64,000 nt of DNA from Escherichia phage JM17. Below the pieces are notes generated by a model. The model searched no databases. It saw only the letters and a program-made list of their open reading frames with translations, and was not told the origin of the DNA. The DNA is taken from sequence record PP400779; one strand, 5' to 3'. Numbering within the stretch: position 1 is the stretch's first letter; every line of letters starts with the position of its first letter. The translations under genes were made by a program, and so were the position numbers. Of the stretch, positions 1,138 to 20,958 are shown piece after piece.

Positions 1138-1138
1138 C

Positions 1139-2675: not shown

Positions 2676-2676
2676 T

Positions 2677-3463: not shown

Positions 3464-4483
3464 ATGAAAATTTTGCACTTAGGCGACTTCCATATCGGAG
3501 TCAAACAAGACGACCCATGGGTTCAAGATATTCAACGTGATGGTATTCGTCAAGCAATTGAATACTCTAAGAAACACGGGATTAAAACTTGGATTCAGTA
3601 CGGTGATTGGTTTGACGTCCGTAAAGCAATAACACATCGTACAATGGAATTCAATCGTGAAATCGTTGATATGATTTCTAAAGCAGGCATTCACGTTCAT
3701 GTCACGATAGGAAACCATGACATGGCGTTTAAGAATACAATAACACCTAACACTGTTTCTGAATTGTTAACTCAATTTGAAAACTTTACTATTTACGAGC
3801 ATCCGACTACTGTAGATTTTGACGGATGTCTGATTGATATCGTTCCATGGATGTGTGAAGAAAATACAGGTGAAATCTTAGAGCACATCAAGACTTCTTC
3901 TGCCGCGTATTGTGTTGGGCACTGGGAACTGAACGGCTTTTATTTCTATAAAGGGATGAAGTCTCATGGGCTTGAACCTGATTTCTTAAAGACCTATAAA
4001 CAAGTCTGGTCTGGCCACTTCCACACAATCTCTGAAGCTGCTAACGTCAAATATATTGGGACACCATGGACCCTTACTGCAGGTGATGAGAACGACCCGC
4101 GCGGATTCTGGGTATTTGACACTGATGTTGAACGTATGGAATTTATTCCTAATGAAACAACATGGCATCGACGAATCACTTATCCATTTAAAGGCAAAAT
4201 CAATTATTCTGATTATACTAATCTAGCCGTACGTGTTATAGTATCAGAAATTGATTCAGAGTTGACTAAGTTTGAATCTGAACTTGAAAAAGTAGTTCAC
4301 TCTCTTCGTATGGTTTCTAAAGTTGATAACAGTGTTGAATCTGATGACGACCAGGAAATCGAGATTAAATCACTTCAAGATATCATTAAAGAATATATTG
4401 ACGCGATTCCAGATATCTCAGACGAAGACAGAGAAGCGCTGGTCAAATATTCCAACGAACTTTATATTGAGGCGACACAATGA
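3464..4483 (+). CDS. 47: recombination/repair nuclease subunit gp47 (Mre11/SbcD-like)
   Basis: 339 aa; N-terminal LHLGDFHIG and later GNHD phosphoesterase motifs; synteny 55-47-46. Confidence 0.9.
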   Translation: MKILHLGDFHIGVKQDDPWVQDIQRDGIRQAIEYSKKHGIKTWIQYGDWFDVRKAITHRTMEFNREIVDMISKAGIHVHVTIGNHDMAFKNTITPNTVSELLTQFENFTIYEHPTTVDFDGCLIDIVPWMCEENTGEILEHIKTSSAAYCVGHWELNGFYFYKGMKSHGLEPDFLKTYKQVWSGHFHTISEAANVKYIGTPWTLTAGDENDPRGFWVFDTDVERMEFIPNETTWHRRITYPFKGKINYSDYTNLAVRVIVSEIDSELTKFESELEKVVHSLRMVSKVDNSVESDDDQEIEIKSLQDIIKEYIDAIPDISDEDREALVKYSNELYIEATQ

Positions 4484-4737
4484 CTTTAGATGAATTTAAT
4501 AATGCTGGTCTTGGGCTTGAAGTTGAAATAGACGTTAAAGATGATGATGGATTCGAGAACACTATCAAGTATTGGATTGAACCATTACGTGTTGAAGGCA
4601 ATGAAGTTAAAGCAGTTCATGTCTGCACCGACTGGGCTATTGAATTTAGCTTTAATATAATGGACAACGATACTCCCGGCTCTATTCTTAAAATGGCTGA
4701 AGCGTGTATTGAGGATGCGTATAATGACGAAGACTGA
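4480..4737 (+). CDS. hypothetical acidic protein (85 aa)
   Basis: occupies the interval where T4 carries alpha-gt. Confidence 0.4.
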   Translation: MTLDEFNNAGLGLEVEIDVKDDDGFENTIKYWIEPLRVEGNEVKAVHVCTDWAIEFSFNIMDNDTPGSILKMAEACIEDAYNDED

Positions 4738-4963
4738 TTATGAAATCCATCGTCATGAATTTAGTATTGGTGACGGTTATATTGGTATCGTTGAATGGAC
4801 TGAGAATTACGAGGAATCAACTCCTCGTTTCTTTGGAACAATGTATGTTACCTGTGAGTACGCACCAGGTGTTGTTATGTATGCAGAACTAGATGAATAT
4901 TTTGCTGATAGGGATGACATGTTAAAATATGTAGAGGACTTCATTCGAAGAGAATACATATGA
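4724..4963 (+). CDS. hypothetical protein (79 aa)
   Basis: ATG 4724 with gagga RBS; ends overlapping gene 46 start. Confidence 0.4.
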   Translation: MTKTDYEIHRHEFSIGDGYIGIVEWTENYEESTPRFFGTMYVTCEYAPGVVMYAELDEYFADRDDMLKYVEDFIRREYI

Positions 4964-6648
4964 AATCATTTAAATTAAATCGTGTTCGTTATCAAAACAT
5001 CATGTCGGTAGGTGGGAATCCTATTGATATCCAATTAGATAAAGTCCAAAAGACATTAATCACTGGTAAAAATGGTGGCGGTAAATCTACGATGTTAGAA
5101 GCCATTACTTTCGGACTTTTCGGTAAACCATTTCGTGATGTTAAGAAAGGACAAATCATTAATAGCACGAACAAGAAAGAGCTCTTAGTTGAGCTTTGGA
5201 TGGAATTCGATGATAAAAAATACTTCATTAAACGTGGCCAAAAGCCCAATATTTTCGAAATCTCCGTTGACGGTGTTCGTCTTGATGAATCTGCCAGCAG
5301 TCGCGACTTCCAAGAAGAATTTGAACGTAGCATCGGAATGTCATACGCGTCTTTTAAACAAATCGTTGTGCTTGGGACGGCAGGATATACCCCTTTCATG
5401 GCTCTTAGCACCCCTGCTCGTAGAAAACTTGTCGAAGACCTTTTAGAAGTCGGCACACTCGCTGAAATGGATAAAATCAATAAGTCTCAAGTTCGCGAAC
5501 TTAATTCTCAGGGACAAGTTCTTGATGCCAAGAAAGATGGTGTTATCCAACAAATTAAGATTTATAACGAGAATATCGAACGTCAAAAGAAATTATCTGG
5601 TGATAATGTAGCGCGTCTACAGAATATGTATGACGACCTAGCCAAAGAAGCTCGTTCATTAAAAGCAGAAATTGAAGAAGCTAATGAGCGACTACTTAAT
5701 ATCGTTCTTGATGAAGACCCTACTGAGGCATTCAACAAGATAGGACAAGAAGCATTCTTGATTAAATCTAAAATCGACTCATATAACAAAGTTATTAAGA
5801 TGTATCATGATGGCGGTACATGTCCTACTTGTGCATCACAGTTGCACCAGGGTGACCCTATTGTCTCTAAGATTACCGATAAGCTTCATGAATGTAATCA
5901 CTCATTCGAGCAACTTACCTGTCACAGAGATAATCTGAGTGTCCTAGTGGACGAATATCGAGCTAATGTTAAGACTAAACAGGACCTTGCATCCGATATT
6001 CGTACCAAGAAACAAGCAATGATTGCCACTATTGATAAAGCTAAGAAAGTTAAAGCTGCAATAGAACAAGCCTCGGCGGAATTTATCGACCATGCTGATG
6101 AGATAGCTTTGCTTCAAAAAGAACTTGATAAAATCATTAAAACAAAATCAGATATCGTTCTTGAAAAATATCATCGTGGTATTATCACAGATATGTTAAA
6201 AGATTCTGGTATTAAAGGTGCTATCATTAAAAAATATGTGCCTCTGTTTAATAAGCAGATTAACCATTATCTTAAAATCATGGAAGCCGATTACGTGTTT
6301 TCTATTGACGAAGAATTCAATGAATCTATAAAATCACGTGGCCGTGAAGAGTTCAGTTATGCTTCATTTAGTCAAGGTGAAAAGGCACGTATCGATATCG
6401 CATTGTTGTTTACATGGCGAGATATTGCTGAAAAGGTTTCTGGTGTTAAAATCAACACTCTAATTCTTGATGAGGTTTTTGATGGTGCTGTCGATTCTGA
6501 GGCTGTTAAGGCTATAGATACCATCCTTGGTAGTTTACAAAATACTAACGTGTTCATTATCTCTCATCGAGACCATGACCCTCAACGTTATGGACAACAT
6601 CTTCAAATGAGCAAAGTTGGACGATTTACTGTGATGACTGTCTCATAA
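4960..6648 (+). CDS. 46: recombination/repair ATPase gp46 (Rad50/SbcC-like)
   Basis: 562 aa; Walker A GKNGGGKST, long coiled coil with CPTC zinc hook, C-terminal LILDEVFDG. Confidence 0.9.
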   Translation: MKSFKLNRVRYQNIMSVGGNPIDIQLDKVQKTLITGKNGGGKSTMLEAITFGLFGKPFRDVKKGQIINSTNKKELLVELWMEFDDKKYFIKRGQKPNIFEISVDGVRLDESASSRDFQEEFERSIGMSYASFKQIVVLGTAGYTPFMALSTPARRKLVEDLLEVGTLAEMDKINKSQVRELNSQGQVLDAKKDGVIQQIKIYNENIERQKKLSGDNVARLQNMYDDLAKEARSLKAEIEEANERLLNIVLDEDPTEAFNKIGQEAFLIKSKIDSYNKVIKMYHDGGTCPTCASQLHQGDPIVSKITDKLHECNHSFEQLTCHRDNLSVLVDEYRANVKTKQDLASDIRTKKQAMIATIDKAKKVKAAIEQASAEFIDHADEIALLQKELDKIIKTKSDIVLEKYHRGIITDMLKDSGIKGAIIKKYVPLFNKQINHYLKIMEADYVFSIDEEFNESIKSRGREEFSYASFSQGEKARIDIALLFTWRDIAEKVSGVKINTLILDEVFDGAVDSEAVKAIDTILGSLQNTNVFIISHRDHDPQRYGQHLQMSKVGRFTVMTVS

Positions 6649-6649
6649 A

Positions 6650-6684
6650 CGCTTTAACATGATGTGGTTATAATGACCACATCA
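6650..6684 (+). promoter_or_regulatory. promoter candidate with TATAAT inside a 9-bp perfect inverted repeat
   Basis: cgctttaa box-like element, then tgatgtggt-tataatg-accacatca (6660-6684). Confidence 0.35.
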
Positions 6685-6702
6685 AATTAAATGGAGAACA
6701 AC

Positions 6703-6891
6703 ATGGAGTATTCAACCGGTCAACATCTTCTTGTTGTCCCTGAAATTAAAAAATATGTTTTGACCAATACGTTTTCAGGTGAAGAACATATTGTTACTGA
6801 ACAAATGCTCAAATCTGCTTTTAAAGATGAGTATAATAAAATAATGTCTAATCGCAATTCCGCATGGACAGTTACCGACTTCTACGAATAA
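6703..6891 (+). CDS. hypothetical protein (62 aa; T4 45.2 position)
   Basis: ATG 6703 with ggaga RBS; position between 46 and rpbA. Confidence 0.4.
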   Translation: MEYSTGQHLLVVPEIKKYVLTNTFSGEEHIVTEQMLKSAFKDEYNKIMSNRNSAWTVTDFYE

Positions 6892-6903
6892 GAGAGAAAT
6901 AAT

Positions 6904-7320
6904 ATGTTTACTACTGTTAAAGGTTTCACTGCTGCTGATCTGAAAGTTACTTCTATCCGTACTGACGCTAACCCACATAACCATAATCGTGTTCGTAAAG
7001 CATGGGTCCTGCATTGTGATGAAGCAAGTGCTAAAAAACTCCAATCTTTGCCACAAGAAACTCGTTTTATGATTTATGGTTTTATTGATAACGATGTATC
7101 TGATATGTGGATTCATCTGATGCGTAAGCACTATAAAGATTCTATCGAAGCAGGTGCTAAAATCGTTCTTGATAAAGACGGTTCTGAGCGTCTGGAAGAT
7201 TTCTACTGTGTTGATGCCGACGAACAACTAATTGCAGCTGGCGAAATTGTTGCTTCTAAAATTCCAGAATATATTGAATCACTGCCTGAAGCTATTAAAA
7301 AGCAGATGGTTGCTGCTTGA
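6904..7320 (+). CDS. rpbA: RNA polymerase-binding protein RpbA-like (138 aa)
   Basis: size and position immediately upstream of the gene 45 region as in T4; sequence only weakly recognised. Confidence 0.5.
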   Translation: MFTTVKGFTAADLKVTSIRTDANPHNHNRVRKAWVLHCDEASAKKLQSLPQETRFMIYGFIDNDVSDMWIHLMRKHYKDSIEAGAKIVLDKDGSERLEDFYCVDADEQLIAAGEIVASKIPEYIESLPEAIKKQMVAA

Positions 7321-7325
7321 TAATT

Positions 7326-7850
7326 ATGAATTTAATATATCTTATAACCTTTTATAATCGTGAGATTAAAAATGAATACCCGTGTTATTATATAGGTTCT
7401 AAAGTTTCGTGTCATTTTAATGGAAAGGATATTATTGAAGATTCTACCGGTAAAATATATACCGGTAGTGTTAATTCCTCGTATTCTCCTTTATATAACA
7501 GATTAATAGACCAAGGCGAATATTCTGTAAAAATTTTAGGCGAAACCACATTAGACCCTAGAAGAATAGAAAGACTATTCCAACTCAATGTTAAAGCCGT
7601 TTCAAATGAAAAATATTTTAATAAGGCTTATGCTAACGAGAAGTCTAGAATATCAGCTAAAGGATATGCACCGTATAAAAATTTAAAAACAGGCAAAATA
7701 GTAAAACTTTCTAAAAACGAAATAAACGAAGATTACGTCGGTGTTAGAAAAAATTGCAAATTGTCGGAGAATCATTTAAACGCAATTAGAGAATTTCAAA
7801 AAAACATATTGGACCAAAGAACGAAGAGAGAAAGTTTCTATTCGTTCTAA
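7326..7850 (+). CDS. GIY-YIG homing endonuclease, N-terminal catalytic part (seg-like)
   Basis: IYLITFYNREIKNEYPCYYIGSK matches GIY-(x10)-YIG; AT-rich codon usage unlike flanking genes. Confidence 0.55.
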   Translation: MNLIYLITFYNREIKNEYPCYYIGSKVSCHFNGKDIIEDSTGKIYTGSVNSSYSPLYNRLIDQGEYSVKILGETTLDPRRIERLFQLNVKAVSNEKYFNKAYANEKSRISAKGYAPYKNLKTGKIVKLSKNEINEDYVGVRKNCKLSENHLNAIREFQKNILDQRTKRESFYSF

Positions 7851-7854
7851 AAAA

Positions 7855-8217
7855 ATGTTTAACGATAGAGATTTTGCTTTAAAATTTAAAGATATAATGA
7901 ATTCTCCTAATGTTAAAGATAAAATAAAAATATCTAAAACATTGTATTGGTCTAAACCTGAAAATAGAGCAAAGGCCTCTATCGCAGCTTCGAAAAGAAA
8001 TGCAACCAAAGAATTTAAGGATAAATTCAGAAAATCTAAAGCTAGAGGTACATGGATATTTCATGAACAAAAATTAAAGGAATTGTGGATTGCTTTAGGA
8101 AAACCAAGTTATATTACATTTAGAAAACATGCAATTCAGCATGGTTTTAATGATGAATCATACCAAGGTGCTATCCGGTCTTGGACAAATTATTATGCTA
8201 ATAGGAAACCTAAATGA
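7855..8217 (+). CDS. basic protein, possibly the detached C-terminal DNA-binding part of the GIY-YIG endonuclease
   Basis: starts 4 nt after upstream stop in another frame; same AT-rich codon usage; K/R-rich. Confidence 0.35.
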   Translation: MFNDRDFALKFKDIMNSPNVKDKIKISKTLYWSKPENRAKASIAASKRNATKEFKDKFRKSKARGTWIFHEQKLKELWIALGKPSYITFRKHAIQHGFNDESYQGAIRSWTNYYANRKPK

Positions 8218-8900
8218 AACTTAGCCGTGAAACCGTAAATATTCTGAAAAACTTCGCTTCTATTAACTCTGGCATTCTGCTGAGTCAAGGTAAATTTATT
8301 ATGACTCGTGCAGTTAATGGCACCACTTATGCGGAAGCAAATATCTCTGATGAAATTGATTTTGACGTAGCACTTTATGATTTGAATAGCTTCTTAAGCA
8401 TTTTGAGTCTAGTGTCTGATGATGCTGAAATTTCAATGCACACTGATGGCAATATTAAAATTGCAGATACACGTTCCACAGTTTATTGGCCTGCCGCTGA
8501 CAAGAGCACCATTGTTTTTCCTAATAAGCCAATTCAATTCCCAGTGGCTTCTGTGATTACTGAAATTAAAGCTGAAGACCTTCAACAATTGCTTCGAGTT
8601 TCACGTGGACTTCAGATTGATACAATTGCTATTACAAATAAAGATGGTAAAATTGTTATCAATGGCTATAATAAAGTTGAAGATTCCGGACTAACTCGTC
8701 CTAAGTATTCTTTGACTCTTACTGATTATGACGGTTCTAATAACTTTAACTTCGTAATCAATATGGCTAATATGAAAATCCAGCCAGGTAACTATAAAGT
8801 AATGTTGTGGGGAGCTGGTGATAAAGTTGCAGCTAAGTTTGAAAGCTCTCAAGTAAGTTATGTTATTGCGATGGAAGCCGATTCTACTCACGACTTCTAA
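8214..8900 (+). CDS. 45: sliding clamp gp45
   Basis: 228 aa, same length as T4 gp45; synteny 45-44-62. Confidence 0.9.
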   Translation: MKLSRETVNILKNFASINSGILLSQGKFIMTRAVNGTTYAEANISDEIDFDVALYDLNSFLSILSLVSDDAEISMHTDGNIKIADTRSTVYWPAADKSTIVFPNKPIQFPVASVITEIKAEDLQQLLRVSRGLQIDTIAITNKDGKIVINGYNKVEDSGLTRPKYSLTLTDYDGSNNFNFVINMANMKIQPGNYKVMLWGAGDKVAAKFESSQVSYVIAMEADSTHDF

Positions 8901-8932
8901 GTCAAAGCTTTACGTTTATTGTGATACGATTA

Positions 8933-8950
8933 TGGAGGAGAAATCCTCCA
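8933..8950 (+). promoter_or_regulatory. stem-loop with GAAA tetraloop in 45-44 intergenic region
   Basis: tggagga-gaaa-tcctcca; no T-run; possible translational control or processing element. Confidence 0.35.
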
Positions 8951-8975
8951 GTTTAATGATAATGAGGAAAATTAC

Positions 8976-9938
8976 ATGATTACTATCAATTCCAAAGAAC
9001 ACATTCTAGAACAGAAATATCGTCCTTCTTCCATTGACGAATGTATTCTGCCTGCGTATGACCATGAAACATTCAAGTCTTTAGTATCTAAAGGAAAACT
9101 TCCTCATATTATTTTGCACTCTCCATCTCCTGGTACCGGTAAAACAACCGTAGCAAAAGCATTATGTAATGATATCAATGCCGAAATGATGTTCGTCAAC
9201 GGTTCTGATTGTAAGATTGATTTTGTGCGTGGTCCATTAACTGCATTCGCTCGTTCAGTCTCAATGGAAGGCAAGCCTAAAGTTATTGTTATTGATGAAT
9301 TTGACCGTAGTGGCCTCGCCGAATCACAACGGCACCTTCGTACATTCATGGAAGAATTCTCTAGTAACTGTTCTATTATTATTACTGCCAACAACATCGA
9401 TGGAATTATCGAACCGTTACGTAGTCGTTGTCGAGTTATCGAATTCGGACGTCCAACCGAAGAAGATAAAATCTCGATGATGAAGAAAATGATTCATCGT
9501 ATGGTTGAAATCTGTAAGAATGAAAATATCGAAATCGCGGATATGAAAGTTGTTGCAGCTCTGGTTAAAAAGAACTTCCCAGACTTTCGTCGTACAATTG
9601 GTCAATTAGACCAGTACTCGTCTAAAGGTGTTCTTGATGCGGGTATTTTGTCTATCGTAACTAATGACCGTGGCACAGTCTCTGATGTTATCGAAGCAAT
9701 GAAGAACAAAGATATCAAACAGCTTCGTGCATTAGCTCCAAAATATGCCGCTGATTATTCATGGTTCATCGATAAATTAGTTTCAGAATGTTATGACCAA
9801 GTTGCACCTGGTAAAAGTATTATTTCGCTTTACGAAATTGCAGGTGAAAATAATAAGTTTCATGGACTAGCTAGTAATATTGAATTACATGTTATGTATA
9901 TGCTTCTTCAACTGACTTGTGAATTGACTTGGAAATAA
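8976..9938 (+). CDS. 44: clamp-loader large subunit gp44 (AAA+)
   Basis: 320 aa; Walker [15 protein letters not shown] Walker B, SRC motif. Confidence 0.9.
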
Positions 9939-9939
9939 T

Positions 9940-10503
9940 ATGAACTTATTTGATGATGACGTCCAGCTTAACGAGCACCAAATTGCATGGAAGTCTAACG
10001 ACGCTGATGCGATTCAAAAATGTGCTGACATGTTTAAAGAAAAACCTGAGAATGAATTCTTTAAAATCATTAATGCTATTAATGAAAAGAAATCTATGTC
10101 AATTGCTCAGGTCGACTACTCAAAATTTATGGTTGAGAACTCATTATCCCAGTTCCCAGAATGTATGCCAGCCGTTTACATGATGAACTTAGTCGGTTCT
10201 GAATTAAGTGATGAAGCGCACTTCAACTATATGATGGCGGCAATTCCACGTGGTCGTCGATTCTCTAAATGGGCTAAACTAGTCGAAGACACTTCAGAGT
10301 TACTAGTTATCAAACTGTTGATGAAACATTACACAATCAACATGAATGATGCTACCGAGTATAAGCGGCTCCTTGAAAAAAATAACAAGTTGCCAATAGT
10401 CCTTAAAGAACTGAAGGCCATGGTCACTGATGAGTTTCTCAAAGAAGTTACAAAAAATGTGAAAGAACAAAAACAATTTAAAAAATTAGCATTGGAATGG
10501 TAA
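9940..10503 (+). CDS. 62: clamp-loader small subunit gp62
   Basis: 187 aa as in T4; starts 2 nt after gene 44. Confidence 0.8.
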
Positions 10504-10505
10504 AA

Positions 10506-10874
10506 ATGATCGAAATTAAATTGAAGAACCCCGAAGATTTTCTGAAAGTCAAAGAGACTCTGACCCGTATGGGCATCGCTAATAACAAGGATAAAGTTCT
10601 TTATCAGTCCTGTCATATCCTCCAAAAGCAAGGTAAATATTACATCGTCCACTTTAAAGAAATGCTGCGTATGGACGGACGTCAGGTTGATATTGATGGT
10701 GAAGACTATCAGCGACGTGATTCGATTGCTCAGTTGCTTGAAGACTGGGGCTTGATTGTTATTGAAGACTCTGCTCGTGAAGATCTGTTTGGCCTGACTA
10801 ATAACTTCCGTGTTATCTCTTTTAAACAGAAAGATGACTGGACTTTGAAAGCAAAATATACAATTGGTAATTAA
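10506..10874 (+). CDS. regA: translational repressor RegA
   Basis: 122 aa from ATG 10506 (MIEIKLKNPEDFLKVKETLTRMGIANNKDKVLYQSCHILQK...) nearly identical to remembered T4 RegA. Confidence 0.85.
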   Translation: MIEIKLKNPEDFLKVKETLTRMGIANNKDKVLYQSCHILQKQGKYYIVHFKEMLRMDGRQVDIDGEDYQRRDSIAQLLEDWGLIVIEDSAREDLFGLTNNFRVISFKQKDDWTLKAKYTIGN

Positions 10875-10877
10875 AGC

Positions 10878-10897
10878 AATGGGACTTCGGTCCCATT
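10878..10897 (+). promoter_or_regulatory. UUCG-tetraloop hairpin between regA and gene 43
   Basis: aatgggac-ttcg-gtcccatt, no T-run; terminator or gene 43 translational-operator-like element. Confidence 0.4.
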
Positions 10898-10955
10898 TGG
10901 AGTATAATAAGTTCATCAACAAACAAAAGACAATAACTCGTCTAAAGGAAATTAA

Positions 10956-13667
10956 ATGAAAGAATTTTACTTAACGGTTGAACAGATTGGTGATTCAATT
11001 TTTGAACGTTACATCGATTCTAATGGCCGTGAACGTACTCGTGAAGTAGAATATAAACCATCACTGTTTGCTCATTGTCCAGAAAGTCAGGCTACGAAAT
11101 ATTTCGATATCTACGGTAAGCCGTGTACTCGTAAGTTGTTCGCTAATATGCGTGATGCCTCCCAATGGATTAAACGCATGGAAGATATCGGACTTGAAGC
11201 ACTTGGCATGGACGATTTCAAATTGGCGTATTTGTCTGACACTTATAACTATGAAATCAAATACGACCATACAAAAATTCGTGTGGCTAACTTCGACATC
11301 GAAGTAACATCTCCGGATGGGTTCCCTGAGCCATCACAAGCAAAACATCCGATTGATGCTATCACCCATTATGACTCAATTGACGACAGGTTCTACGTAT
11401 TTGATCTATTGAATTCTCCATATGGTAATGTAGAAGAATGGTCTATTGAAATCGCTGCTAAGCTTCAAGAACAAGGCGGTGATGAAGTTCCATCTGAAAT
11501 TATCGATAAAATCATTTATATGCCGTTCGATAACGAAAAAGAATTGTTGATGGAATATCTCAACTTCTGGCAACAGAAAACTCCTGTCATTTTGACTGGA
11601 TGGAACGTTGAGTCATTCGATATTCCATATGTGTATAACCGAATCAAGAATATTTTTGGCGAATCTACTGCGAAACGTTTATCACCACATCGTAAAACTC
11701 GTGTTAAAGTTATCGAAAACATGTATGGTTCTCGTGAAATCATTACATTGTTCGGTATCTCTGTTCTTGATTACATTGACCTTTACAAAAAATTCTCTTT
11801 TACCAATCAACCGTCGTATTCTCTGGATTACATTTCAGAATTTGAATTGAACGTTGGTAAACTGAAATATGATGGCCCTATTTCTAAGCTTCGTGAAAGC
11901 AATCACCAACGATATATTTCTTATAACATTATCGACGTGTATCGTGTATTGCAAATTGATGCTAAGCGTCAGTTCATCAACTTGAGCTTGGACATGGGTT
12001 ATTATGCTAAGATACAGATTCAATCTGTGTTTAGCCCAATTAAAACATGGGATGCTATTATTTTTAATAGCCTTAAAGAGCAGAACAAGGTGATTCCACA
12101 AGGTCGTTCTCACCCGGTTCAACCTTATCCCGGCGCTTTTGTTAAGGAACCTATTCCAAATCGATACAAATATGTAATGAGTTTCGACCTTACATCTCTG
12201 TATCCAAGTATTATTCGCCAAGTGAATATTAGCCCGGAAACAATAGCAGGAACGTTTAAAGTAGCTCCATTGCATGATTATATTAACGCAATCGCTGAAC
12301 GTCCTTCAGATGTGTACAGTTGCTCTCCTAACGGCATGATGTATTATAAAGACCGTGATGGTGTAGTTCCAACTGAAATCACTAAGGTCTTTAATCAACG
12401 TAAAGAACATAAAGGTTACATGCTTGCAGCTCAACGTAATGGTGAAATAATTAAAGAGGCATTGCATAATCCTAATCTTTCTGTTGACGAACCATTAGAT
12501 GTTGATTATCGTTTCGACTTCAGTGATGAGATTAAAGAAAAGATTAAAAAGTTGTCTGCTAAATCTCTTAATGAAATGTTGTTTAGAGCTCAACGTACTG
12601 AAGTTGCAGGTATGACCGCACAAATTAACCGTAAATTGCTCATCAACTCACTTTATGGTGCACTTGGAAACGTTTGGTTCCGTTATTATGATTTGCGTAA
12701 TGCTACTGCAATCACAACATTCGGGCAAATGGCTTTACAGTGGATTGAACGTAAAGTTAATGAATATCTGAATGAAGTTTGTGGTACAGAAGGTGAAGCT
12801 TTCGTTCTTTATGGTGATACGGACTCTATTTACGTATCTGCTGATAAAATTATCGATAAGGTTGGTGAATCTAAATTCCGTGATACTAACCATTGGGTAG
12901 ACTTCTTAGATAAGTTTGCACGTGAACGTATGGAACCTGCTATTGATAGAGGTTTCCGTGAAATGTGCGAATACATGAACAATAAACAACACTTAATGTT
13001 CATGGACCGAGAAGCTATCGCTGGGCCTCCGCTTGGTTCTAAAGGTATTGGCGGATTTTGGACTGGTAAGAAACGTTATGCATTAAACGTGTGGGATATG
13101 GAAGGTACTCGTTACGCTGAGCCTAAACTCAAAATCATGGGTCTAGAAACTCAGAAATCTTCGACCCCTAAAGCAGTACAGAAAGCTCTTAAAGAATGTA
13201 TTCGTCGTATGCTTCAAGAAGGTGAAGAATCATTACAAGAATATTTTAAAGAGTTTGAAAAAGAATTCCGTCAATTGAATTATATTAGCATCGCGTCGGT
13301 ATCTTCTGCGAATAACATTGCTAAATATGACGTCGGTGGATTCCCTGGTCCTAAATGCCCGTTCCATATTCGTGGAATTCTGACATATAACCGAGCTATC
13401 AAAGGTAATATCGATGCACCACAAGTTGTAGAAGGTGAAAAAGTATATGTTCTGCCTTTACGTGAAGGAAACCCATTCGGTGATAAATGTATCGCATGGC
13501 CTTCTGGTACTGAAATCACAGATTTAATTAAAGACGATGTACTTCATTGGATGGACTACACTGTTCTCCTTGAGAAGACATTTATTAAACCACTTGAAGG
13601 ATTCACATCAGCAGCGAAACTCGATTATGAGAAGAAAGCATCTCTGTTCGATATGTTCGATTTTTGA
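10956..13667 (+). CDS. 43: DNA polymerase gp43 (family B), RB69-type
   Basis: 903 aa; N-terminus MKEFYLTVEQIGDSIFERYIDSNGRERTREVEYKPSLFAHCPESQ and exo/pol motifs (FDIE, YGDTDS) match remembered RB69 gp43. Confidence 0.97.
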   Translation: MKEFYLTVEQIGDSIFERYIDSNGRERTREVEYKPSLFAHCPESQATKYFDIYGKPCTRKLFANMRDASQWIKRMEDIGLEALGMDDFKLAYLSDTYNYEIKYDHTKIRVANFDIEVTSPDGFPEPSQAKHPIDAITHYDSIDDRFYVFDLLNSPYGNVEEWSIEIAAKLQEQGGDEVPSEIIDKIIYMPFDNEKELLMEYLNFWQQKTPVILTGWNVESFDIPYVYNRIKNIFGESTAKRLSPHRKTRVKVIENMYGSREIITLFGISVLDYIDLYKKFSFTNQPSYSLDYISEFELNVGKLKYDGPISKLRESNHQRYISYNIIDVYRVLQIDAKRQFINLSLDMGYYAKIQIQSVFSPIKTWDAIIFNSLKEQNKVIPQGRSHPVQPYPGAFVKEPIPNRYKYVMSFDLTSLYPSIIRQVNISPETIAGTFKVAPLHDYINAIAERPSDVYSCSPNGMMYYKDRDGVVPTEITKVFNQRKEHKGYMLAAQRNGEIIKEALHNPNLSVDEPLDVDYRFDFSDEIKEKIKKLSAKSLNEMLFRAQRTEVAGMTAQINRKLLINSLYGALGNVWFRYYDLRNATAITTFGQMALQWIERKVNEYLNEVCGTEGEAFVLYGDTDSIYVSADKIIDKVGESKFRDTNHWVDFLDKFARERMEPAIDRGFREMCEYMNNKQHLMFMDREAIAGPPLGSKGIGGFWTGKKRYALNVWDMEGTRYAEPKLKIMGLETQKSSTPKAVQKALKECIRRMLQEGEESLQEYFKEFEKEFRQLNYISIASVSSANNIAKYDVGGFPGPKCPFHIRGILTYNRAIKGNIDAPQVVEGEKVYVLPLREGNPFGDKCIAWPSGTEITDLIKDDVLHWMDYTVLLEKTFIKPLEGFTSAAKLDYEKKASLFDMFDF

Positions 13668-13707
13668 TATAATGTCATGGACGGTAAACTAATTAAATGA
13701 GAGAAAT

Positions 13708-14343
13708 ATGAAAACTACTCCTATTACTATCGCTATTGACGCAATCATAAAACAAGCTTCTTCTTTGGCCGCTATGGCCAAAGTAATTAGTCAAAACCCT
13801 GCTCGTTATAATGCTATTCTAGAAACTCTTCGACGCCCTGGACTTAGTAATTATGAAAGCCGGGTAATTATTACAGGTGTTGGTAAGAATGCTAATATCG
13901 CAACTAAAGCTTCCGAGACATTTGCTTCACTAGGTATTCCTAGCATGTATTTGAACACTGGGCATTATTCTCACGGTGATGCAGGATTCATTGCGCCTAA
14001 TGATGTGTTGATTCATATTAGTCGTTCTGGTAAGACTGAAGAAATGATAGGTGTTGCTAAACATCTTCGTATGATTCGTCCTCAGGTTAAACAGATTCTG
14101 TTACATTGTAACCCAGACATTCCACAAGAATACGAAGCTCTTTTTGATTATACGTTCTGTACTGGCATCGCGGTAGAGGTTGATGAGAATTCTCTGGCTC
14201 CGACTATGTCCACTACATTGTTGTTAGCGCTTATCGATACGTTTGCTATCAACCTTTCGTCTGAACGTGGATTTACCTCTAATGATTTCCTTAAGTTCCA
14301 TCCAGGCGGTGCACTAGGTGCCATGTTACGAGGCGAACAATGA
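13708..14343 (+). CDS. SIS-domain sugar-phosphate isomerase (KdsD/GutQ-like; candidate D-arabinose-5-phosphate isomerase)
   Basis: 211 aa; VIITGVGKN...SLGIPSMYLN...HGD...HISRSGKTEE...FLKFHPGGALGAMLRG parallels KdsD SIS core; no CBS domains. Confidence 0.75.
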   Translation: MKTTPITIAIDAIIKQASSLAAMAKVISQNPARYNAILETLRRPGLSNYESRVIITGVGKNANIATKASETFASLGIPSMYLNTGHYSHGDAGFIAPNDVLIHISRSGKTEEMIGVAKHLRMIRPQVKQILLHCNPDIPQEYEALFDYTFCTGIAVEVDENSLAPTMSTTLLLALIDTFAINLSSERGFTSNDFLKFHPGGALGAMLRGEQ

Positions 14344-14483
14344 AAGCAATAACAATAGGACTTTTACTATTGATGCTTGTCATGACTATCTACTGGAGCT
14401 TAACGGCTCCGGTAATGATTCCAACACTTGTAATTGGATGGATTATGATTGGACTACAAGCAAAGTATGAATGCTTTAACTAG
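14340..14483 (+). CDS. small hydrophobic protein (47 aa, two predicted TM segments)
   Basis: ATG overlaps upstream stop (ATGA); below ORF-track cutoff; lies where T4 has imm. Confidence 0.3.
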   Translation: MKAITIGLLLLMLVMTIYWSLTAPVMIPTLVIGWIMIGLQAKYECFN

Positions 14484-14524
14484 AATAGTGTACAATACTC
14501 CTACTTACCAATGAGGACTTTAAC

Positions 14525-16210
14525 ATGAAAAAAGCTGTTATTCTTGGTGCTGGACTGGCAACTCGTTTGTATCCAATAACGCATCATATTCCTAAGGTGC
14601 TTGTTAACTATAAACAAGATACTATTCTGAGCAATTTGTATACAATTTATTCTGACCTTGGCGCAGATGAAATTATTGTAGTAGTTCATTCAAAATTTGC
14701 TGAAACTGTTCGAGCTTATTGTGAACAAGAAGGGTTCAATGTGACTATTCGTACAGTTGATGAAGCGTATGGTTCTGCTTATGCTCTTGCTAAATTACAC
14801 AAAGATTTAGACGGCCATAATGTAATTGTTAACTGGTGTGATATTATTCCTGATTTTGGTTCATGGTCTTGGAATGTTAACGCAATCTATGTTAAGGGTG
14901 ACGAATGTCGATATAATTTCGACGGTGAAAATATCACTAACGTAGGTTCAACAGGTGGTAATGTTGTAGGAATTTATCAGTTCAAAGACTGGGAATTCTA
15001 TATGGGTTCTACTGATGAGGAAATTCATGAATACTGCAAAGGACGTGATTTCGTAGAATTCCTTTACGGCAGCGCATTCAATAAATCAGAGCTTATGAAT
15101 CTAATTGATTTAGGTGATATGCCTAAACTTGAAAAAGCTCATGAAGTTCGTGAACTTAATCGTAGTTTTAATGCAGTTGAAATTGGTGAAGAAACTGTAA
15201 CTAAATTCGCATTAACCGAACAGGGTCGAGCTCTTCAGAAAGATGAGATTTCGTGGTATCTTAAAGTGAAATCAGATTCAGTTCCTCAGTTAGTTTCTGT
15301 TAATGAAAATAACTTTGAAATGGAACGCATTAAAGGTAAGCCTGCATTTGAATATATTAAATCCAAATCAAGTCTTGCTCGTCCACAAATTGTTGATGCA
15401 ATTTTAGATGCACTGAAATTCAGCACAGACACTTATTTTGTAAGTCCTGAAACTGTTCGTCGTGATTTCACTAAAGAATTCTATACGAAAGTTATTGATC
15501 GTTGTGAAAGCATTCAACCATTGATTGATTCATTTGGTAAAATCACACATGTGAACTACACTAAGATTGGACGTCTGAAGCCAATGCTGAAACAAGCTTT
15601 AGAACACCTCATTCGTTATCATAACCGTTCTCAGGGACAGTACTCTGTTATTCACGGTGACCCGAACTTCAGTAATACTATGATTACTGATAATGGCGAA
15701 GTCAAGTTTATCGACCCTCGTGGATATTTTGGTGAAACCAAGATTTACGGGCCAAAATTGTACGATGAAGCTAAAGTGCTTTACGCTGTTTCAGGTTATG
15801 ATGAATTCAATGCTAATCCGACTTGGGGACAGTTTACTATTGATGAAACAACTTGTAATGTGACTATTAACATCAATCCATTAGTTTACAAATATGGAAA
15901 GATGAGTTCGTTTAACGAGTATCATCATTTGGCAGTGGCAATTATCTGGATTGCATTAGGTGGTTATTTCAAGAATAATCCACTTAAAGCGGTAGCCGCA
16001 TATTATAAAGGTATGGAACTTCTGACTAAGCAATTACGTAACATGGGCCGTGTACTTCAGGACGGCTCTATTAGTTATGACGTAGCAGAACCTGTAACGG
16101 CTACTCTGATTACAAAAAATCCTGGTAAATGGGTACTAACTGATAAAGAAACTGGTGTTTCCTATCGTCCAATCGGTGGCGATATCACTCATCAATGGGA
16201 ACGAATTTGA
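14525..16210 (+). CDS. bifunctional sugar-1-phosphate nucleotidyltransferase / APH-fold sugar kinase
   Basis: 561 aa; N-term AVILGAGLATRLYPIT...PKVLV (NTP-transferase G-loop); C-term VIHGDPNFSN...FIDPRG (Brenner HGDxxxxN and DxxG kinase motifs). Confidence 0.7.
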   Translation: MKKAVILGAGLATRLYPITHHIPKVLVNYKQDTILSNLYTIYSDLGADEIIVVVHSKFAETVRAYCEQEGFNVTIRTVDEAYGSAYALAKLHKDLDGHNVIVNWCDIIPDFGSWSWNVNAIYVKGDECRYNFDGENITNVGSTGGNVVGIYQFKDWEFYMGSTDEEIHEYCKGRDFVEFLYGSAFNKSELMNLIDLGDMPKLEKAHEVRELNRSFNAVEIGEETVTKFALTEQGRALQKDEISWYLKVKSDSVPQLVSVNENNFEMERIKGKPAFEYIKSKSSLARPQIVDAILDALKFSTDTYFVSPETVRRDFTKEFYTKVIDRCESIQPLIDSFGKITHVNYTKIGRLKPMLKQALEHLIRYHNRSQGQYSVIHGDPNFSNTMITDNGEVKFIDPRGYFGETKIYGPKLYDEAKVLYAVSGYDEFNANPTWGQFTIDETTCNVTININPLVYKYGKMSSFNEYHHLAVAIIWIALGGYFKNNPLKAVAAYYKGMELLTKQLRNMGRVLQDGSISYDVAEPVTATLITKNPGKWVLTDKETGVSYRPIGGDITHQWERI

Positions 16211-16956
16211 TACATTATCTCTACAAAACTACTAATCTTATAAACGGTAAAGTTTATTTAGGAATGCACTCGGCTGAAGAAGCCGAGCCTTTAGATTTAT
16301 ATAAAGGTTCTGGTAAATTATATAAAAAGGCTGAAAGGAAATATGGGAAGGAAAATTTTCTTAAAGAAATCATTTCCTACCATAGCTCAAGAGAAGAATT
16401 AAAAATAGCTGAAAAGGCTCTAATAACATTAGACATAGTTAAAGACCCAAATTATTACAATCTTAAAACTGGTGGCGAAGGTGGTTCTGACGGGTTATCC
16501 CAAAGGTCCAAGGATAAAATTTCTAAGGCAAATAAAGGACGTTTAGTTGGTGATAAAAACCCAAGATGGGGTAAAACTTTGTCAGCTGAATCTATAGCTA
16601 GGGGTAAAGAAAAGCACAGGAGGTATGGTAAACCTGCATTACATGGTCTAAAGATTAATGTAGATGGCAAATATTATGAATCCTGTCGGGAAGCGGCTAA
16701 AGATTTAGGTATATCTTCTGCCACGATTCAAAAGAGAGTAAAATCGCCTAAATATCTTAATTATCGGTATCAGGACGAAAGCAAAAATGCTCACAAGTCT
16801 CAAAAATTTGTTAAAATAAACGAAAATTACTATGAATCTCTTAGGATAGCTGAAAAGAAAACGGGTATTCCTAGAAAGCGTATAGCTGATAATATTAAAA
16901 ATTCTATTGAAGGATATTGCTATGAAACCATTACATCTTTGCGTGGACGTCGATGA
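16195..16956 (+). CDS. GIY-YIG homing endonuclease (freestanding, seg-like)
   Basis: 253 aa; HYLYKTTNLINGKVYLGMH = GIY-YIG module; AT-rich codons; overlaps both flanking genes. Confidence 0.7.
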   Translation: MGTNLIHYLYKTTNLINGKVYLGMHSAEEAEPLDLYKGSGKLYKKAERKYGKENFLKEIISYHSSREELKIAEKALITLDIVKDPNYYNLKTGGEGGSDGLSQRSKDKISKANKGRLVGDKNPRWGKTLSAESIARGKEKHRRYGKPALHGLKINVDGKYYESCREAAKDLGISSATIQKRVKSPKYLNYRYQDESKNAHKSQKFVKINENYYESLRIAEKKTGIPRKRIADNIKNSIEGYCYETITSLRGRR

Positions 16957-17296
16957 TTGTATAACAGAGTGGAATAACAATCGTGATTACGTGAACTTCA
17001 AACCAGACGTCGAAATGGTGTCTGCCATTAATGCCCTGTATGATGCAGGGCATACAATAACGCTTTACACTGCTCGAGGTATGAAGTCAGTAGGTCCTGG
17101 TCGTATAGCAATTGACATTCTCCCAAGTCTGATTCAGAACTTGGCAAACATTGGCTTGAAGTACCATAATTTGCTAACACATAAACCAGTATATGATTGG
17201 ATTATCGACGACAAAGCTATGCGTCCTGACGAATTCAAAGCTCTTATGAATAAAGGCGAATTCGAAACATTTAAATCATATAAACCGAATCTATAA
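16922..17296 (+). CDS. HAD-like phosphatase (candidate sugar-phosphate phosphatase)
   Basis: 124 aa from ATG 16922; N-terminal hhhhDxDx motif-like LCVDVDDCIT; small size typical of capless HAD. Confidence 0.45.
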   Translation: MKPLHLCVDVDDCITEWNNNRDYVNFKPDVEMVSAINALYDAGHTITLYTARGMKSVGPGRIAIDILPSLIQNLANIGLKYHNLLTHKPVYDWIIDDKAMRPDEFKALMNKGEFETFKSYKPNL

Positions 17297-17353
17297 TAAT
17301 TTAAGTAAGACCTGCAAAAACCATCGCATCAATTAACGTGAGATGCAAAAAAA

Positions 17354-18514
17354 ATGAATACTTTTAAAATTGGAACGAATTTTGATTTAGCTCTTCTTGA
17401 TAAAATCGTAGAGCTCAATAAAACTTATCCTAATAGCTTGATAAACGAAGTATACGGCTCTACAAGAGAAATGGCTTTTGTAGCAGCCAGACCTGATTTT
17501 AGGCTTCCTGACGTTGACAAAAAGATGTTAGAAGATTACGTTAAACGTTGTAACGAATTAGGTATTTGCTTTAACTATACACTCAACACGATAAATCCTG
17601 GTTCAAAAAGAGAACTAGTTGAGTGGAAGAAGAAAGCTATTCAGGATTATGTTCAGTATCTTTGGTCAATAGGCGTATGGCGTATTACTATCGCTAACCC
17701 TGTTGTTATGGAAATTGTTCGTGAAGTCAATAAAGACATTGAGATTGAAGTTTCAACAATTCTACATGTCGATGCTGTAACTCAAATCAAATACTTGCAT
17801 GACCAGTATAATATCAAAAAGGTCTGCTGTGGAATTCATAAGAACCGTTCAGTTTCTTTCCTGAAGCGTGCAGCAGAGTTTTGCAATAAGAACAATATAA
17901 TATTTGAAGTTCTTGTAAATGAGTTCTGTTCTAATGCCGGTAAAGGGTATACAACACATTGTAGCTATCGTGACTCTTGCTATATTTTCCATAGTACTGA
18001 TGTTACAGCTGATGATGCTAAATCCTTAAACGGATATCCTATGCAGCACTGTATTAAAGCTCGTGATACAGACCCATTTAACTGGTTGAGAACTCGTTTT
18101 GTTCGTCCTCAAGATTTGAAACTTTATAATGATATTGGTATCACTCAATTCAAAGTTTCAGGACGTACAGGTAGCACAGACTACATTTTGAAAGTTCTTG
18201 AAGCATACGCTTCTGAAAAGTTTGAAGGTAATTTGTTAGAACTGTGGAAGCCTTTAGAGACTATTTTCACTCTTGAAAATGAGACCGAGTTTTCACATAC
18301 GGTAAATATTGAAACCTCTTTGTTAGATGGCTTTTTAGAAAAAAGGTGGTTCAGACATCCAGATTTCGATTGTGCTAATGAGATCTGCGGGACGACGTGT
18401 ACATATTGTGAAAGATATTATAAACGTCAGTTATCTAAAAATGGGTTAGCAGAAAACTCTATATCTATTATTGATATAACTAACTCTGATGACGCTTTGA
18501 GGTACCCGGAATGA
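17354..18514 (+). CDS. peptidase-U32-family-like protein (PrtC/RlhA/UbiU-like fold), function unknown
   Basis: 386 aa; IGTNFD...VYGS...CFNYTLNT...IEIEVSTILHV...FEVLVNEFCSNAGKGYTTHCSYRDSCYIFHS resembles U32 core incl. Cys cluster; extra CxxxCxxxCxxC near C-terminus. Confidence 0.45.
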   Translation: MNTFKIGTNFDLALLDKIVELNKTYPNSLINEVYGSTREMAFVAARPDFRLPDVDKKMLEDYVKRCNELGICFNYTLNTINPGSKRELVEWKKKAIQDYVQYLWSIGVWRITIANPVVMEIVREVNKDIEIEVSTILHVDAVTQIKYLHDQYNIKKVCCGIHKNRSVSFLKRAAEFCNKNNIIFEVLVNEFCSNAGKGYTTHCSYRDSCYIFHSTDVTADDAKSLNGYPMQHCIKARDTDPFNWLRTRFVRPQDLKLYNDIGITQFKVSGRTGSTDYILKVLEAYASEKFEGNLLELWKPLETIFTLENETEFSHTVNIETSLLDGFLEKRWFRHPDFDCANEICGTTCTYCERYYKRQLSKNGLAENSISIIDITNSDDALRYPE

Positions 18515-18792: not shown

Positions 18793-19509
18793 ATGGGAAA
18801 ACATAACACAATGAAATATATCAAAGCCGCAGATTTTCAAACCGCATTTAAAGCAGTCAATCGTGAAATTTTAGAAAACCCGGAATTCGTAACTGATTCT
18901 CGTATTGGACGTTGTAATGAAATTGGGTCTATGACAGTAGTTGTTGACACTCCATCATCATTCAAAATGACTGACCCACGTATTAACCGCATCTCTTATG
19001 AATATGCCGAAGACTTCTGGAAGTTTATGATTTCTGGTGGTACCAACGCAGAAGAAGCGTTTAAGGCATATCCTAATGTCGCTAAATTTATTTCTAAACC
19101 AAAATCAGATGTTTTGCCGGCGAACTTCAATACTTTCTATGGTCCTCGCATTGCGGCCCAATTACCAGCTCTTCTAAAAGAACTTAAAGAGAAGCCTAAC
19201 TCTCGAAGAGTTGTGTTCCAAATTCTAGAAAGTTCTGATCAGGCTTTGCTTGATTCGGATGAAACGCTTGAATATCCATGTACTGACTCAGTGACTTATT
19301 ATATTCGTGATGGTAAGCTTTATACCCACTGTCATATGCGTTCTCAGAACTGTGCTGTTGTTATGCAGTTGGATTTTTATCTCCAAGGAAAATTACTTCA
19401 TTATATCGCTAACGAATGCGGTGTAGAAGTTGGTGATTATACTCATACCATGGTAAGTGCCCATGTGTTTGAACGTGATTTTGATTATGTTAAAGGATTC
19501 CTTGACTAA
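18793..19509 (+). CDS. 42: dCMP hydroxymethylase gp42 (thymidylate-synthase fold)
   Basis: 238 aa; TS-family core (NSRRVVFQI, PCTDSVTYYIRDGKLY..MRSQN....LD...GV.VGDY) with Asp at the base-specificity position; synteny 43..42..uvsX. Confidence 0.75.
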   Translation: MGKHNTMKYIKAADFQTAFKAVNREILENPEFVTDSRIGRCNEIGSMTVVVDTPSSFKMTDPRINRISYEYAEDFWKFMISGGTNAEEAFKAYPNVAKFISKPKSDVLPANFNTFYGPRIAAQLPALLKELKEKPNSRRVVFQILESSDQALLDSDETLEYPCTDSVTYYIRDGKLYTHCHMRSQNCAVVMQLDFYLQGKLLHYIANECGVEVGDYTHTMVSAHVFERDFDYVKGFLD

Positions 19510-20408
19510 TGGCTATTTTCCGCGTACCAATCTTGAGTATGCGGTCTTATGAAACTGGACAGTATGCTATCCTTAAGGATGGCAACTTCCAACTTCATTT
19601 GCACCGTGCTAATCCGGGTGATGTGATTACATATCCACGTAATGCATCTGATATTAAAGAATGCGAACGTCTTTTCCCAGAATTTAAGTTTGTTCCATTA
19701 TGGTATAAAGATAACGCTTATAACACTCGTAAATATTTCTGGTCTGAAAATGAATTTGTGGTTGATTCATTAATTGCTTATTATGATTGCGATTTTCTAA
19801 TCACAGATATAACTGGATATGACGGCGCTTTTGATGTAGAATTCAATTTCAATATCACTGCAGACCCTAATAAACCACGTTTTTATATTGACGAATTCTT
19901 AAAAACCGACATGTTGTCGGTTAATCGTTCAATCCAAACAACTGTGTTGAATGAACGTCAAAAAGAAGTGCTGGTTAACGCAGGTGCAGATGGTAATAAG
20001 ATTATCGTAACGCAGAAAGTTATACGTCCTTCCATCATGCAGCGTCTTGTAGGTGATTTGGCTCCTATTTATCTAGATGGTATTTTTCATCCATTTCGAA
20101 TTAGTGACCCGTGCTATCGTTTTGAACAAGTGGTTGAATGTGCAATTCAATTAGGTCAACCGCTTTATATAACCGATCCAAATAATAGCTTTGACAGAAA
20201 TAAGTATCCTGAAGAAGCGTTGATTCGAATTTTTAAACCAACTAAAACTGAGTACTATCAAATTCTTAAAGGACGTCCGAAGATTCAATATTTCGAAAAT
20301 CCTGAAGAAGTATTTCATCCAGGTCTTGGTGAGTTCATCTACTTTAATGCTTTAATTTCTTCACCGTATAATATACCTAAATATGAAGATGTCGTAATCG
20401 AGGAATAA
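19509..20408 (+). CDS. hypothetical protein in the T4 beta-gt slot (candidate DNA-modification transferase)
   Basis: 299 aa; start overlaps gene 42 stop (TAATG); not recognisable as T4 beta-glucosyltransferase. Confidence 0.4.
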   Translation: MAIFRVPILSMRSYETGQYAILKDGNFQLHLHRANPGDVITYPRNASDIKECERLFPEFKFVPLWYKDNAYNTRKYFWSENEFVVDSLIAYYDCDFLITDITGYDGAFDVEFNFNITADPNKPRFYIDEFLKTDMLSVNRSIQTTVLNERQKEVLVNAGADGNKIIVTQKVIRPSIMQRLVGDLAPIYLDGIFHPFRISDPCYRFEQVVECAIQLGQPLYITDPNNSFDRNKYPEEALIRIFKPTKTEYYQILKGRPKIQYFENPEEVFHPGLGEFIYFNALISSPYNIPKYEDVVIEE

Positions 20409-20409: not shown

Positions 20410-20958
20410 ATGGCTAAAATTATTTTAGTAGATGGCCCGGATAATGCTGGTAAAACAACTTTCATTAATGACATAATGGAAATTAGTGAAAGATATGTAA
20501 AAATTGATTTCCCTAAACGAACAGTTGATGGACGTTTCGATGTTAAGTCTCGAAATGAAGTTGGCTGTTTTGAAACGATGTTGAATTATTTAGACCCTAC
20601 TAAGATTTATCTGTTAGACCGTGGATATATTAGTAACTGGGTTTACGGACGTATTCGACAAGATGCGGACTCGGTTCTTGACGTTTATGAACAGGATTAT
20701 ATTCGTCTTTGCCAAAACCATGATGTGTTCACAATTATTTTAACACGTAACGAAATGACTGAAAGTTTTGAAGATGACCTTATTACTTTGTCTTCATTAG
20801 GTTTTAATACAGTCATTTCACATTTTGAAGAGTTTGCAATTCATAACAAAATCCAAACGTATCAATTACTTAATCATGATGGTGCTAACAAAGTTATAGG
20901 ATTTAATGCAAGCGAACGTAATGATTTGATTACAGAAATCATCAAATGGGCTCGTTAA
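20410..20958 (+). CDS. P-loop kinase, thymidylate-kinase-like
   Basis: 182 aa; Walker A VDGPDNAGKTT and DRGYISNWVYG (DR-Y/F motif of dNMP kinases). Confidence 0.55.
   Translation: MAKIILVDGPDNAGKTTFINDIMEISERYVKIDFPKRTVDGRFDVKSRNEVGCFETMLNYLDPTKIYLLDRGYISNWVYGRIRQDADSVLDVYEQDYIRLCQNHDVFTIILTRNEMTESFEDDLITLSSLGFNTVISHFEEFAIHNKIQTYQLLNHDGANKVIGFNASERNDLITEIIKWAR

Follow-up and report, generated by a model that had tools for sequence, protein, structure and literature searches.

A seg-like gene between two sugar-modification genes

We examined a 64,000-nucleotide (nt) stretch of DNA from Escherichia phage JM17 (sequence record PP400779; the whole stretch is called the window below), in which an open reading frame (ORF) for a predicted Seg-type GIY-YIG homing endonuclease lies between a bifunctional sugar nucleotidyltransferase/kinase gene and a HAD-type sugar phosphatase gene (Table 1). 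The first-pass annotation, made from the letters alone, had described this ORF (here seg) as a freestanding, AT-rich homing endonuclease gene wedged into a sugar-modification operon, probably as a recent mobile insertion that could drive the spread of the flanking modification genes. The ORF is present on the plus strand with the limits and length given in Table 1, and its GIY-YIG motif (YLYKTTNLINGKVYLGMH) occupies residues 8-25. The overlaps also agree with that description: exactly 16 nt are shared with the nucleotidyltransferase/kinase gene and 35 nt with the HAD gene, counted from ATG 16922, which is the annotated HAD start in NRG-P0074 and a20 (a start at TTG 16907 would give an overlap of 50 nt). 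The translation start signals of the HAD gene are located inside the seg ORF, as they are in the orthologous loci L016, L017, and L018, and HAD motif I (DVDD, 16946-16957) at the right-hand junction contains the seg stop codon TGA (16954-16956). At the left-hand end, TTG 16207 is a possible alternative seg start that coincides in part with the stop codon of the upstream gene and would give a protein beginning (M)IHYLYK. The orthologues and T4 SegB have their N-termini at the position equivalent to 16207, rather than at ATG 16195.

The description as AT-rich holds to a modest degree, since the GC content of the insert is 34.0% vs 37.3% for the window (5th percentile of same-size segments); its A-over-T skew is at the 99th percentile of same-size segments of the window. 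An Rfam search found nothing relevant in 15500-17800, so no intron surrounds the gene there, and the ORF lies between two complete genes; we concluded that it is freestanding. Seg paralogues were not found elsewhere in the window.

No ribosome-binding site of its own is evident for the seg ORF. A scan for sigma-70-type promoters gave 14 sites vs 19.2 in shuffled sequence, none of them placed to serve the ORF, and the T4 late-promoter motif TATAAATA was not found in the region. Without a promoter of its own, seg is probably transcribed by read-through from upstream, and its translation is likely to occur by coupling or re-initiation at the nucleotidyltransferase/kinase stop codon, as proposed for T4 segC, segF, and mobE (PMC2988022). 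Such an overlap with the upstream ORF, with presumed coupling of translation at a low level, is a usual feature of freestanding endonuclease genes in T4 (PMC2988022). The scan also flagged a terminator-like element within the seg ORF (16269-16287), a 7-bp GC-rich hairpin (CTCGGCTGAAGAAGCCGAG) followed by a weak T-rich tail; for T4 mobE, transcription termination inside the gene has been reported (PMC2988022).

Table 1. Features of the seg locus and of the surrounding arabinosylation cluster (positions in the window)
Feature	Position	Strand	Remark
seg-like GIY-YIG homing endonuclease ORF (predicted)	16195-16956	+	253 amino acids
Overlap of seg ORF with nucleotidyltransferase/kinase 3' end	16195-16210	+	16 nt
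Insert cassette	16207-16948		742 nt in place of 42 nt (CTAATGCACCGTGTAGAAAACATGCTTAATCTTTGTTTTGAT) of the insert-free allele (e.g., RB69, FL18)
GIY-YIG catalytic domain	16207-16485	+	residues 5-97
NUMOD3 linker	16498-16599	+	residues 102-135
I-TevI-type DNA-binding domain with NUMOD1 helix-turn-helix	16648-16770	+	residues 152-192
Further conserved two-helix module	16804-16908	+	residues 204-238; helices 210-223 and 227-236
HAD Shine-Dalgarno sequence (AAGGA, 16910-16914) and ATG 16922	16910-16924	+	inside seg coding sequence
Recombination patch	15784-18442		23 differences from FL18 in 1,917 nt outside the insert
Gene 43 DNA polymerase	10956-13667		upstream of arabinosylation cluster
SIS arabinose-5-phosphate isomerase	13708-14343		arabinosylation cluster
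Bifunctional sugar nucleotidyltransferase/kinase	14525-16210	+	upstream flank; equivalent to RB69p052:53
HAD-type sugar phosphatase	16922-17296	+	downstream flank; equivalent to RB69p051
U32-like protein	17354-18514		arabinosylation cluster
Thymidylate-synthase-like 5-hydroxy-dCMP synthase	18793-19509		arabinosylation cluster
Glycosyltransferase	19509-20408		arabinosylation cluster
Nucleotide kinase	20410-20958		arabinosylation cluster

Domain organization and predicted fold

The assignment to the GIY-YIG homing endonucleases was supported by matches at or above curated cut-offs, by sequence identity to T4 SegB, and by a predicted fold that resembles I-TevI domains only. In Pfam the window protein matched I-TevI_DNA-bd (PF20987; 33.6 bits, cut-off 27), NUMOD1 (24.6 bits, cut-off 22.8), and NUMOD3 (20.4 bits, cut-off 20.4), and in NCBIfam it matched TIGR01453 "group I intron endonuclease" at 63 bits (cut-off 56). 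It also matched phrog_314, "homing endonuclease", with E = 3e-43. The catalytic region (residues 5-120) is 45% identical to that of T4 SegB (E = 8e-29), and no variation was seen among 43 aligned homologues at Y10, Y21, G23, Y36, G38, G40, E73, and N89. E73 and N89 are the counterparts of the superfamily's catalytic Glu and Asn. The AlphaFold model has a mean predicted local distance difference test score (pLDDT) of 81.7, with block means of 88-98 over residues 1-90, which make up most of the catalytic domain. The only confident PDB matches in a fold search were the I-TevI DNA-binding domain (1i3j, probability 1.00) and the I-TevI catalytic domain (1mk0/1ln0, 0.97-0.99); a PDB sequence search returned only the DNA-binding domain (E = 0.036), and the catalytic domain surfaced by the fold search alone. 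Domain matches and model agree on a plan of N-terminal GIY-YIG nuclease domain, NUMOD3 linker, and I-TevI-type DNA-binding domain.

The two-helix module downstream of these domains was modeled with a pLDDT of 85-90 over residues 211-230 and lower values beyond, and is possibly a second DNA-binding unit. We considered it as a tandem duplicate of the helix-turn-helix and rejected this, as BLAST of residues 152-196 vs residues 202-246 gave no significant alignment.

Insert-bearing and insert-free alleles in Mosigvirus

The phage belongs to the genus Mosigvirus (RB69-like, T-even type), as do all its close database matches. A 6-kb query over the locus aligned with 152 phage records for 80% or more of its length, and only three of these, NRG-P0074, BEU50, and a20, covered it fully; the others align in two pieces without ∼700 nt. 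The insert is thus present in 3 of ∼153 Mosigvirus records that carry the cluster (99.3% identity), with identical junctions, and absent from ∼150 (∼98%). When the insert alone was used as the query, the same three records were found, and elsewhere only a 72-nt similarity to segB/segD-type genes. Within Mosigvirus the presence of seg is sporadic.

We compared the junctions of four insert-bearing genomes, the window included, with those of 10 insert-free genomes, RB69 included. In all four carriers the cassette has the same boundaries: on the left it takes in the final codon of the upstream gene with its stop, and on the right it reaches HAD codon 9. The 42 nt found at this place in the insert-free allele are not contained in the insert-bearing allele, so the two alleles differ by a replacement and not by a simple deletion. 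The HAD protein begins MKPLHLCVD (codons 1-9, 16922-16948) in the seg-linked form vs MLNLCFD in insert-free Mosigviruses. The insert-free junction type, MHRVENML.LCFD, is also that of Kanagawavirus CIP9 and related loci, and the insert-free state is therefore ancestral for the wider clade.

This distribution bears on a possible regulatory role. The main task of the protein might be to bind DNA and regulate the operon, in the manner of the I-TevI autorepressor, rather than to promote mobility: its DNA-binding domain is of the I-TevI type, and I-TevI doubles as a repressor (PMC2988022). Against such a role, ∼98% of Mosigviruses run the same operon without seg, neither a promoter-like site for seg nor a late promoter was found nearby, and the nuclease residues are conserved. 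We regard a mainly regulatory function as very unlikely.

Sequence variation in and around the insert

The four Mosigvirus copies of seg differ at seven polymorphic sites, all seven at third codon positions and synonymous, so that the four proteins are identical. Comparison with the closest orthologue (71% identity) gave proportions of nonsynonymous (pN) and synonymous (pS) differences of 0.17 and 0.60, respectively, and a dN/dS ratio of ∼0.16, equal to that of the neighboring kinase gene; the ratio is rough because synonymous sites are near saturation. These values speak to a second alternative, in which the nuclease is inactive or domesticated and the ORF is kept only as the source of the HAD ribosome-binding site and start codon. 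The location of the HAD translation signals inside the ORF, an arrangement kept in L016-L018, the low population frequency, and the want of an evident equivalent of I-TevI Arg27 would all fit that explanation. Yet the HAD signals need only the last 35-50 nt, and the full length of the protein is under purifying selection; no catalytic residue varies, and active T4 SegB has the same set of motifs. Domestication therefore appears unlikely, if less so than a regulatory role.

The carriers are more alike within the insert than next to it. Between the window and the three other carriers there are 51-61 differences in 2,100 nt over 13601-15700 and 5 in 742 nt over the insert, i.e., the carriers are 2.4-2.9% apart in neighboring DNA and ≤0.7% apart in the insert. 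The best-matching record to the left of the insert is the insert-free FL18, which is 100% identical to the window over 13700-15700 (the next best record reached 98.3%) and shows 0 differences from it in 13335-15783 (2,449 nt). The run of identity is broken by the patch listed in Table 1, which surrounds the insert and reaches ∼0.4 kb to its left and ∼1.5 kb to its right. To the right of the patch only 5 differences from FL18 were counted in ∼2,560 nt. Such a patch would be the expected trace of homing with co-conversion of the flanks; the same trace would be left by ordinary recombination or by a loss of seg in the FL18 lineage. No donor genome for the patch stands out, the 15.7-18.2 kb flanks being too conserved across Mosigviruses. 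Outside the FL18-like stretch (∼13.3-21 kb), none of 50,697 phage records is more than ∼97.5% identical to the parts 1-10900 and 23000-47000, which indicates that the window phage is a distinct mosaic Mosigvirus outside the NRG-P0074/a20 group.

Orthologues in other T4-like lineages

Full-length orthologues with 51-71% identity were found in four metagenomic T4-like contigs (L016-L019) and in one phage genome of IMG/VR (L023). The latter was the only full-length orthologue in the IMG/VR scan; the other matches were distant Seg-like proteins. In all five loci seg is directly upstream of the same small HAD gene, and in four of them it directly follows the nucleotidyltransferase/kinase gene. The overlap with the HAD start recurs in three of the five (L016, L017, and L018), where 32-35 nt at the seg 3' end include the Shine-Dalgarno sequence and ATG. 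L018 looks like the insert-bearing counterpart of the insert-free Bragavirus vB_SdyM_006 (L022), with the same gene order beyond HAD. Identity of the orthologous loci to the window is 53-71% for Seg, 42-68% for the kinase, and 60-84% for HAD, and synonymous divergence (dS) is similar for seg and its flanks. Since Seg identity is similar to flank identity, the family has long been at this site in some lineages. By these alignments the seg family is old and faithful to the HAD site, and rare in Mosigvirus. The description of the insertion as recent thus holds for Mosigvirus only, because the family is anciently tied to the HAD 5' end in other T4-like lineages.

The same orthologues could be taken to mean that seg is ancestral to Mosigvirus and was lost from most of its members, rather than having arrived recently in a few. 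Under this history one would expect the orthologues to share one position across divergent T4-like phages and to differ about as much as their flanks do, with similar dS, as is observed. Four observations argue in the other direction. The insert-free allele did not arise by deletion, since its 42 nt are missing from the insert-bearing allele. Its junction and HAD N-terminus are also those of Kanagawavirus CIP9 and related loci. No two of the four copies are more than 0.7% apart, against 2-3% between their genomes nearby. Finally, loss from ∼150 genomes would require the same precise replacement many times over. Ancestral presence followed by loss thus seems improbable, although it is the least improbable of the three alternatives considered.

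A candidate recognition site before HAD motif I

Immediately before the first Asp of HAD motif I, 21 of 23 insert-free lineages have Phe, whereas all seven insert-bearing loci examined, of which L023 and L124 are one contig, have Val, Ile, or Leu. The association gives a Fisher p of 1.8e-5 when seven loci are counted, phylogeny and the L023/L124 duplicate being ignored. In the window a Val codon (16943-16945) is found where insert-free alleles have a Phe codon. As a lead from these alignments, the residue may mark the recognition or cleavage site of the enzyme.

Two side observations were made at this position. One Acinetobacter-phage-like locus, L110, has Val before HAD motif I, yet lacks a seg gene; it may represent a lineage that lost the endonuclease. 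The insert-free Shigella phage JK42 (L012) carries four synonymous changes within 10 nt of HAD motif I (window 16960-16969), 12-21 nt to the right of the insertion point, and these match the Kanagawavirus CIP9 sequence. The JK42 cluster is possibly a small imported patch or a cleavage-resistant variant.

Proposed homing pathway

We propose, with a rough probability of 0.8, that seg is intact and freestanding, encodes a Seg-type GIY-YIG homing endonuclease, and homes into the insert-free kinase/HAD junction. The gene would be transcribed with the arabinosylation operon and translated at a low level by coupling to the nucleotidyltransferase/kinase stop. In a mixed infection by carrier and insert-free Mosigviruses the enzyme, by analogy with T4 SegB, SegE, SegF, and SegG, would bind and cut the insert-free kinase/HAD junction, and recombination-dependent phage repair would then copy the 742-nt cassette, with a variable length of flank, into the cut genome. 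The insert-bearing allele would escape cutting because the cassette replaces the 42 nt at the junction, including the change of Phe to Val before HAD motif I. As the seg 3' end holds the HAD ribosome-binding site and start, presumably only a precise replacement could remove seg without damage to the operon.

Several points weigh against this proposal. Cleavage and homing by the window protein are what we infer from its sequence and predicted fold. Its match to SegE_GIY-YIG (PF19835; 18.6 bits, E = 0.0023) is below the gathering cut-off of 25, and Pfam gave no direct PF01541 match; four orthologues (P0003, P0004, P0007, and P0008) have precomputed PF19835 matches. The Arg that follows YIG in I-TevI (Arg27) has no obvious counterpart at the expected distance; the invariant Y36-x-G38-S39-G40-K41 stands in its place, as in active T4 SegB. 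An efficient drive element would be expected to exceed a frequency of ∼2%. Because mosaicism pervades T-even genomes, the patch around the insert could reflect ordinary recombination. Among the 14 genomes no alleles near the insert and outside the cassette were both common to all four carriers and rare in insert-free genomes, and without such hitchhiking single-nucleotide polymorphisms co-conversion at the population level cannot be shown with this number of genomes. Finally, the association at the residue before HAD motif I is broken by two insert-free Acinetobacter-phage-like loci with Val or Ile.

Homing requires homologous flanks. Alleles would therefore be exchanged only among phages that already bear the cluster, and the cluster could not be delivered to phages without it. 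The suggestion that the element drives the spread of the flanking modification genes accordingly stands for co-conversion of alleles between cluster carriers and has to be given up for introduction of the cluster where it is missing.

A broader scenario is conceivable, and we offer it tentatively as the less probable extension. Seg would be an old, site-faithful lineage tied to the HAD 5' end in at least six T4-like lineages (Mosigvirus and five others, in Bragavirus-like and Acinetobacter-phage-like backgrounds), hard to lose through a "translational hostage-taking" of the HAD start, protecting its own allele by the change of Phe to Val, Ile, or Leu, and tolerating cytosines that carry arabinose chains.

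Comparison with known homing endonucleases

T4 SegB is an experimentally proven site-specific homing endonuclease of the tRNA gene cluster that also cuts modified T-even DNA; it is inherited by 94% of the progeny, and its flanks are co-converted (PMC2330249). The window protein and SegB are both freestanding and have in common the pattern Y..Y.G.HS...D.Y.GSGK...KYG.ENF.KEI...E...YNLK.GGEGG. They differ in the C-terminal DNA-binding halves, which are unrelated, and in location, as SegB sits in tRNA genes whereas the window seg and its presumed target are at the kinase/HAD junction. The DNA also differs: SegB meets glucosyl-hydroxymethylcytosine, and the host DNA of the window phage has arabinosylated cytosine derivatives. 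I-TevI of the T4 td intron has the same plan of nuclease, linker, minor-groove helix, and helix-turn-helix. Unlike I-TevI, the window gene is outside any intron, and its protein has no evident zinc finger in the linker, a different residue arrangement at the Arg27 position, and an extra C-terminal helical module.

T4 SegF, SegG, and MobE are freestanding endonucleases that cause localized marker exclusion; segF overlaps its upstream ORF by 11 nt, and mobE is coupled via UAAUGA (PMC2988022). Like them, the window seg lies between conserved genes, and flank co-conversion is expected. In contrast to them, it also overlaps the downstream gene and supplies the start signals of that gene, and its orthologues hold the same position in several genera.

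Closer to the present locus, a different Seg-like GIY-YIG gene is found in the arabinosylation cluster directly downstream, rather than upstream, of the same HAD gene in Yersinia phage phiR1-RT (g051, named segB; L020 4363-5001) and in relatives (L104, L106, L108, and L109, at about 1860-2490). With only 31-32% identity, these genes presumably represent a separate insertion with a different target. Endonuclease genes on both sides make the HAD gene a hot spot for them.

The enzyme class is textbook knowledge, and two GenBank records already label the ORF "homing endonuclease"; our literature search found no paper that discusses it. What is new is the specific family and its insertion site, the conserved position across genera with overlap of the HAD start, and the implied action on arabinosylated DNA. 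The work adds a Seg family whose target region is defined and open to experiment, namely the kinase/HAD junction of RB69-like phages, and points to a probable hot spot for the exchange of alleles within the cytosine-arabinosylation cluster, which determines restriction and CRISPR resistance. If active on native RB69-type DNA, the enzyme would be a site-specific nuclease that tolerates arabinosylated cytosines, useful for the engineering of hard-to-cut phages.

The arabinosylation cluster and its annotation

RB69 arabinosylates modified cytosines by means of a cluster downstream of gene 43, on which our gene assignments are based (PMC6024577, PMC13326640). The genes that flank seg correspond to this cluster, RB69p055 to RB69p045, and also lie downstream of gene 43. 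Domain matches identified the SIS isomerase, nucleotidyltransferase/kinase, HAD, U32-like, and thymidylate-synthase-like genes, in agreement with the sugar-modification setting proposed at first pass. For annotation purposes, the seg ORF is not part of the modification pathway.

Labels of the flanking genes in NRG-P0074 (L001/L005), a20 (L004), and RB69 (L007) are inconsistent and probably wrong. The nucleotidyltransferase/kinase is labeled "dCMP deaminase" in NRG-P0074 (L001/L005), and the HAD phosphatase appears as "phosphoheptose isomerase" in several records.

The gene 43 region of the metagenomic T4-like contig L017 (1-3260) is interrupted by a GIY-YIG ORF between two DNA_pol_B fragments; that of L019 (1-2283) is also interrupted, and there an opposite-strand ORF with a weak NUMOD3 match adjoins a C-terminal DNA_pol_B fragment. 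Between kinase and HAD, the Acinetobacter-phage-like loci L110 (∼1170-1500) and L023 (1982-2989) have one to three extra small ORFs.

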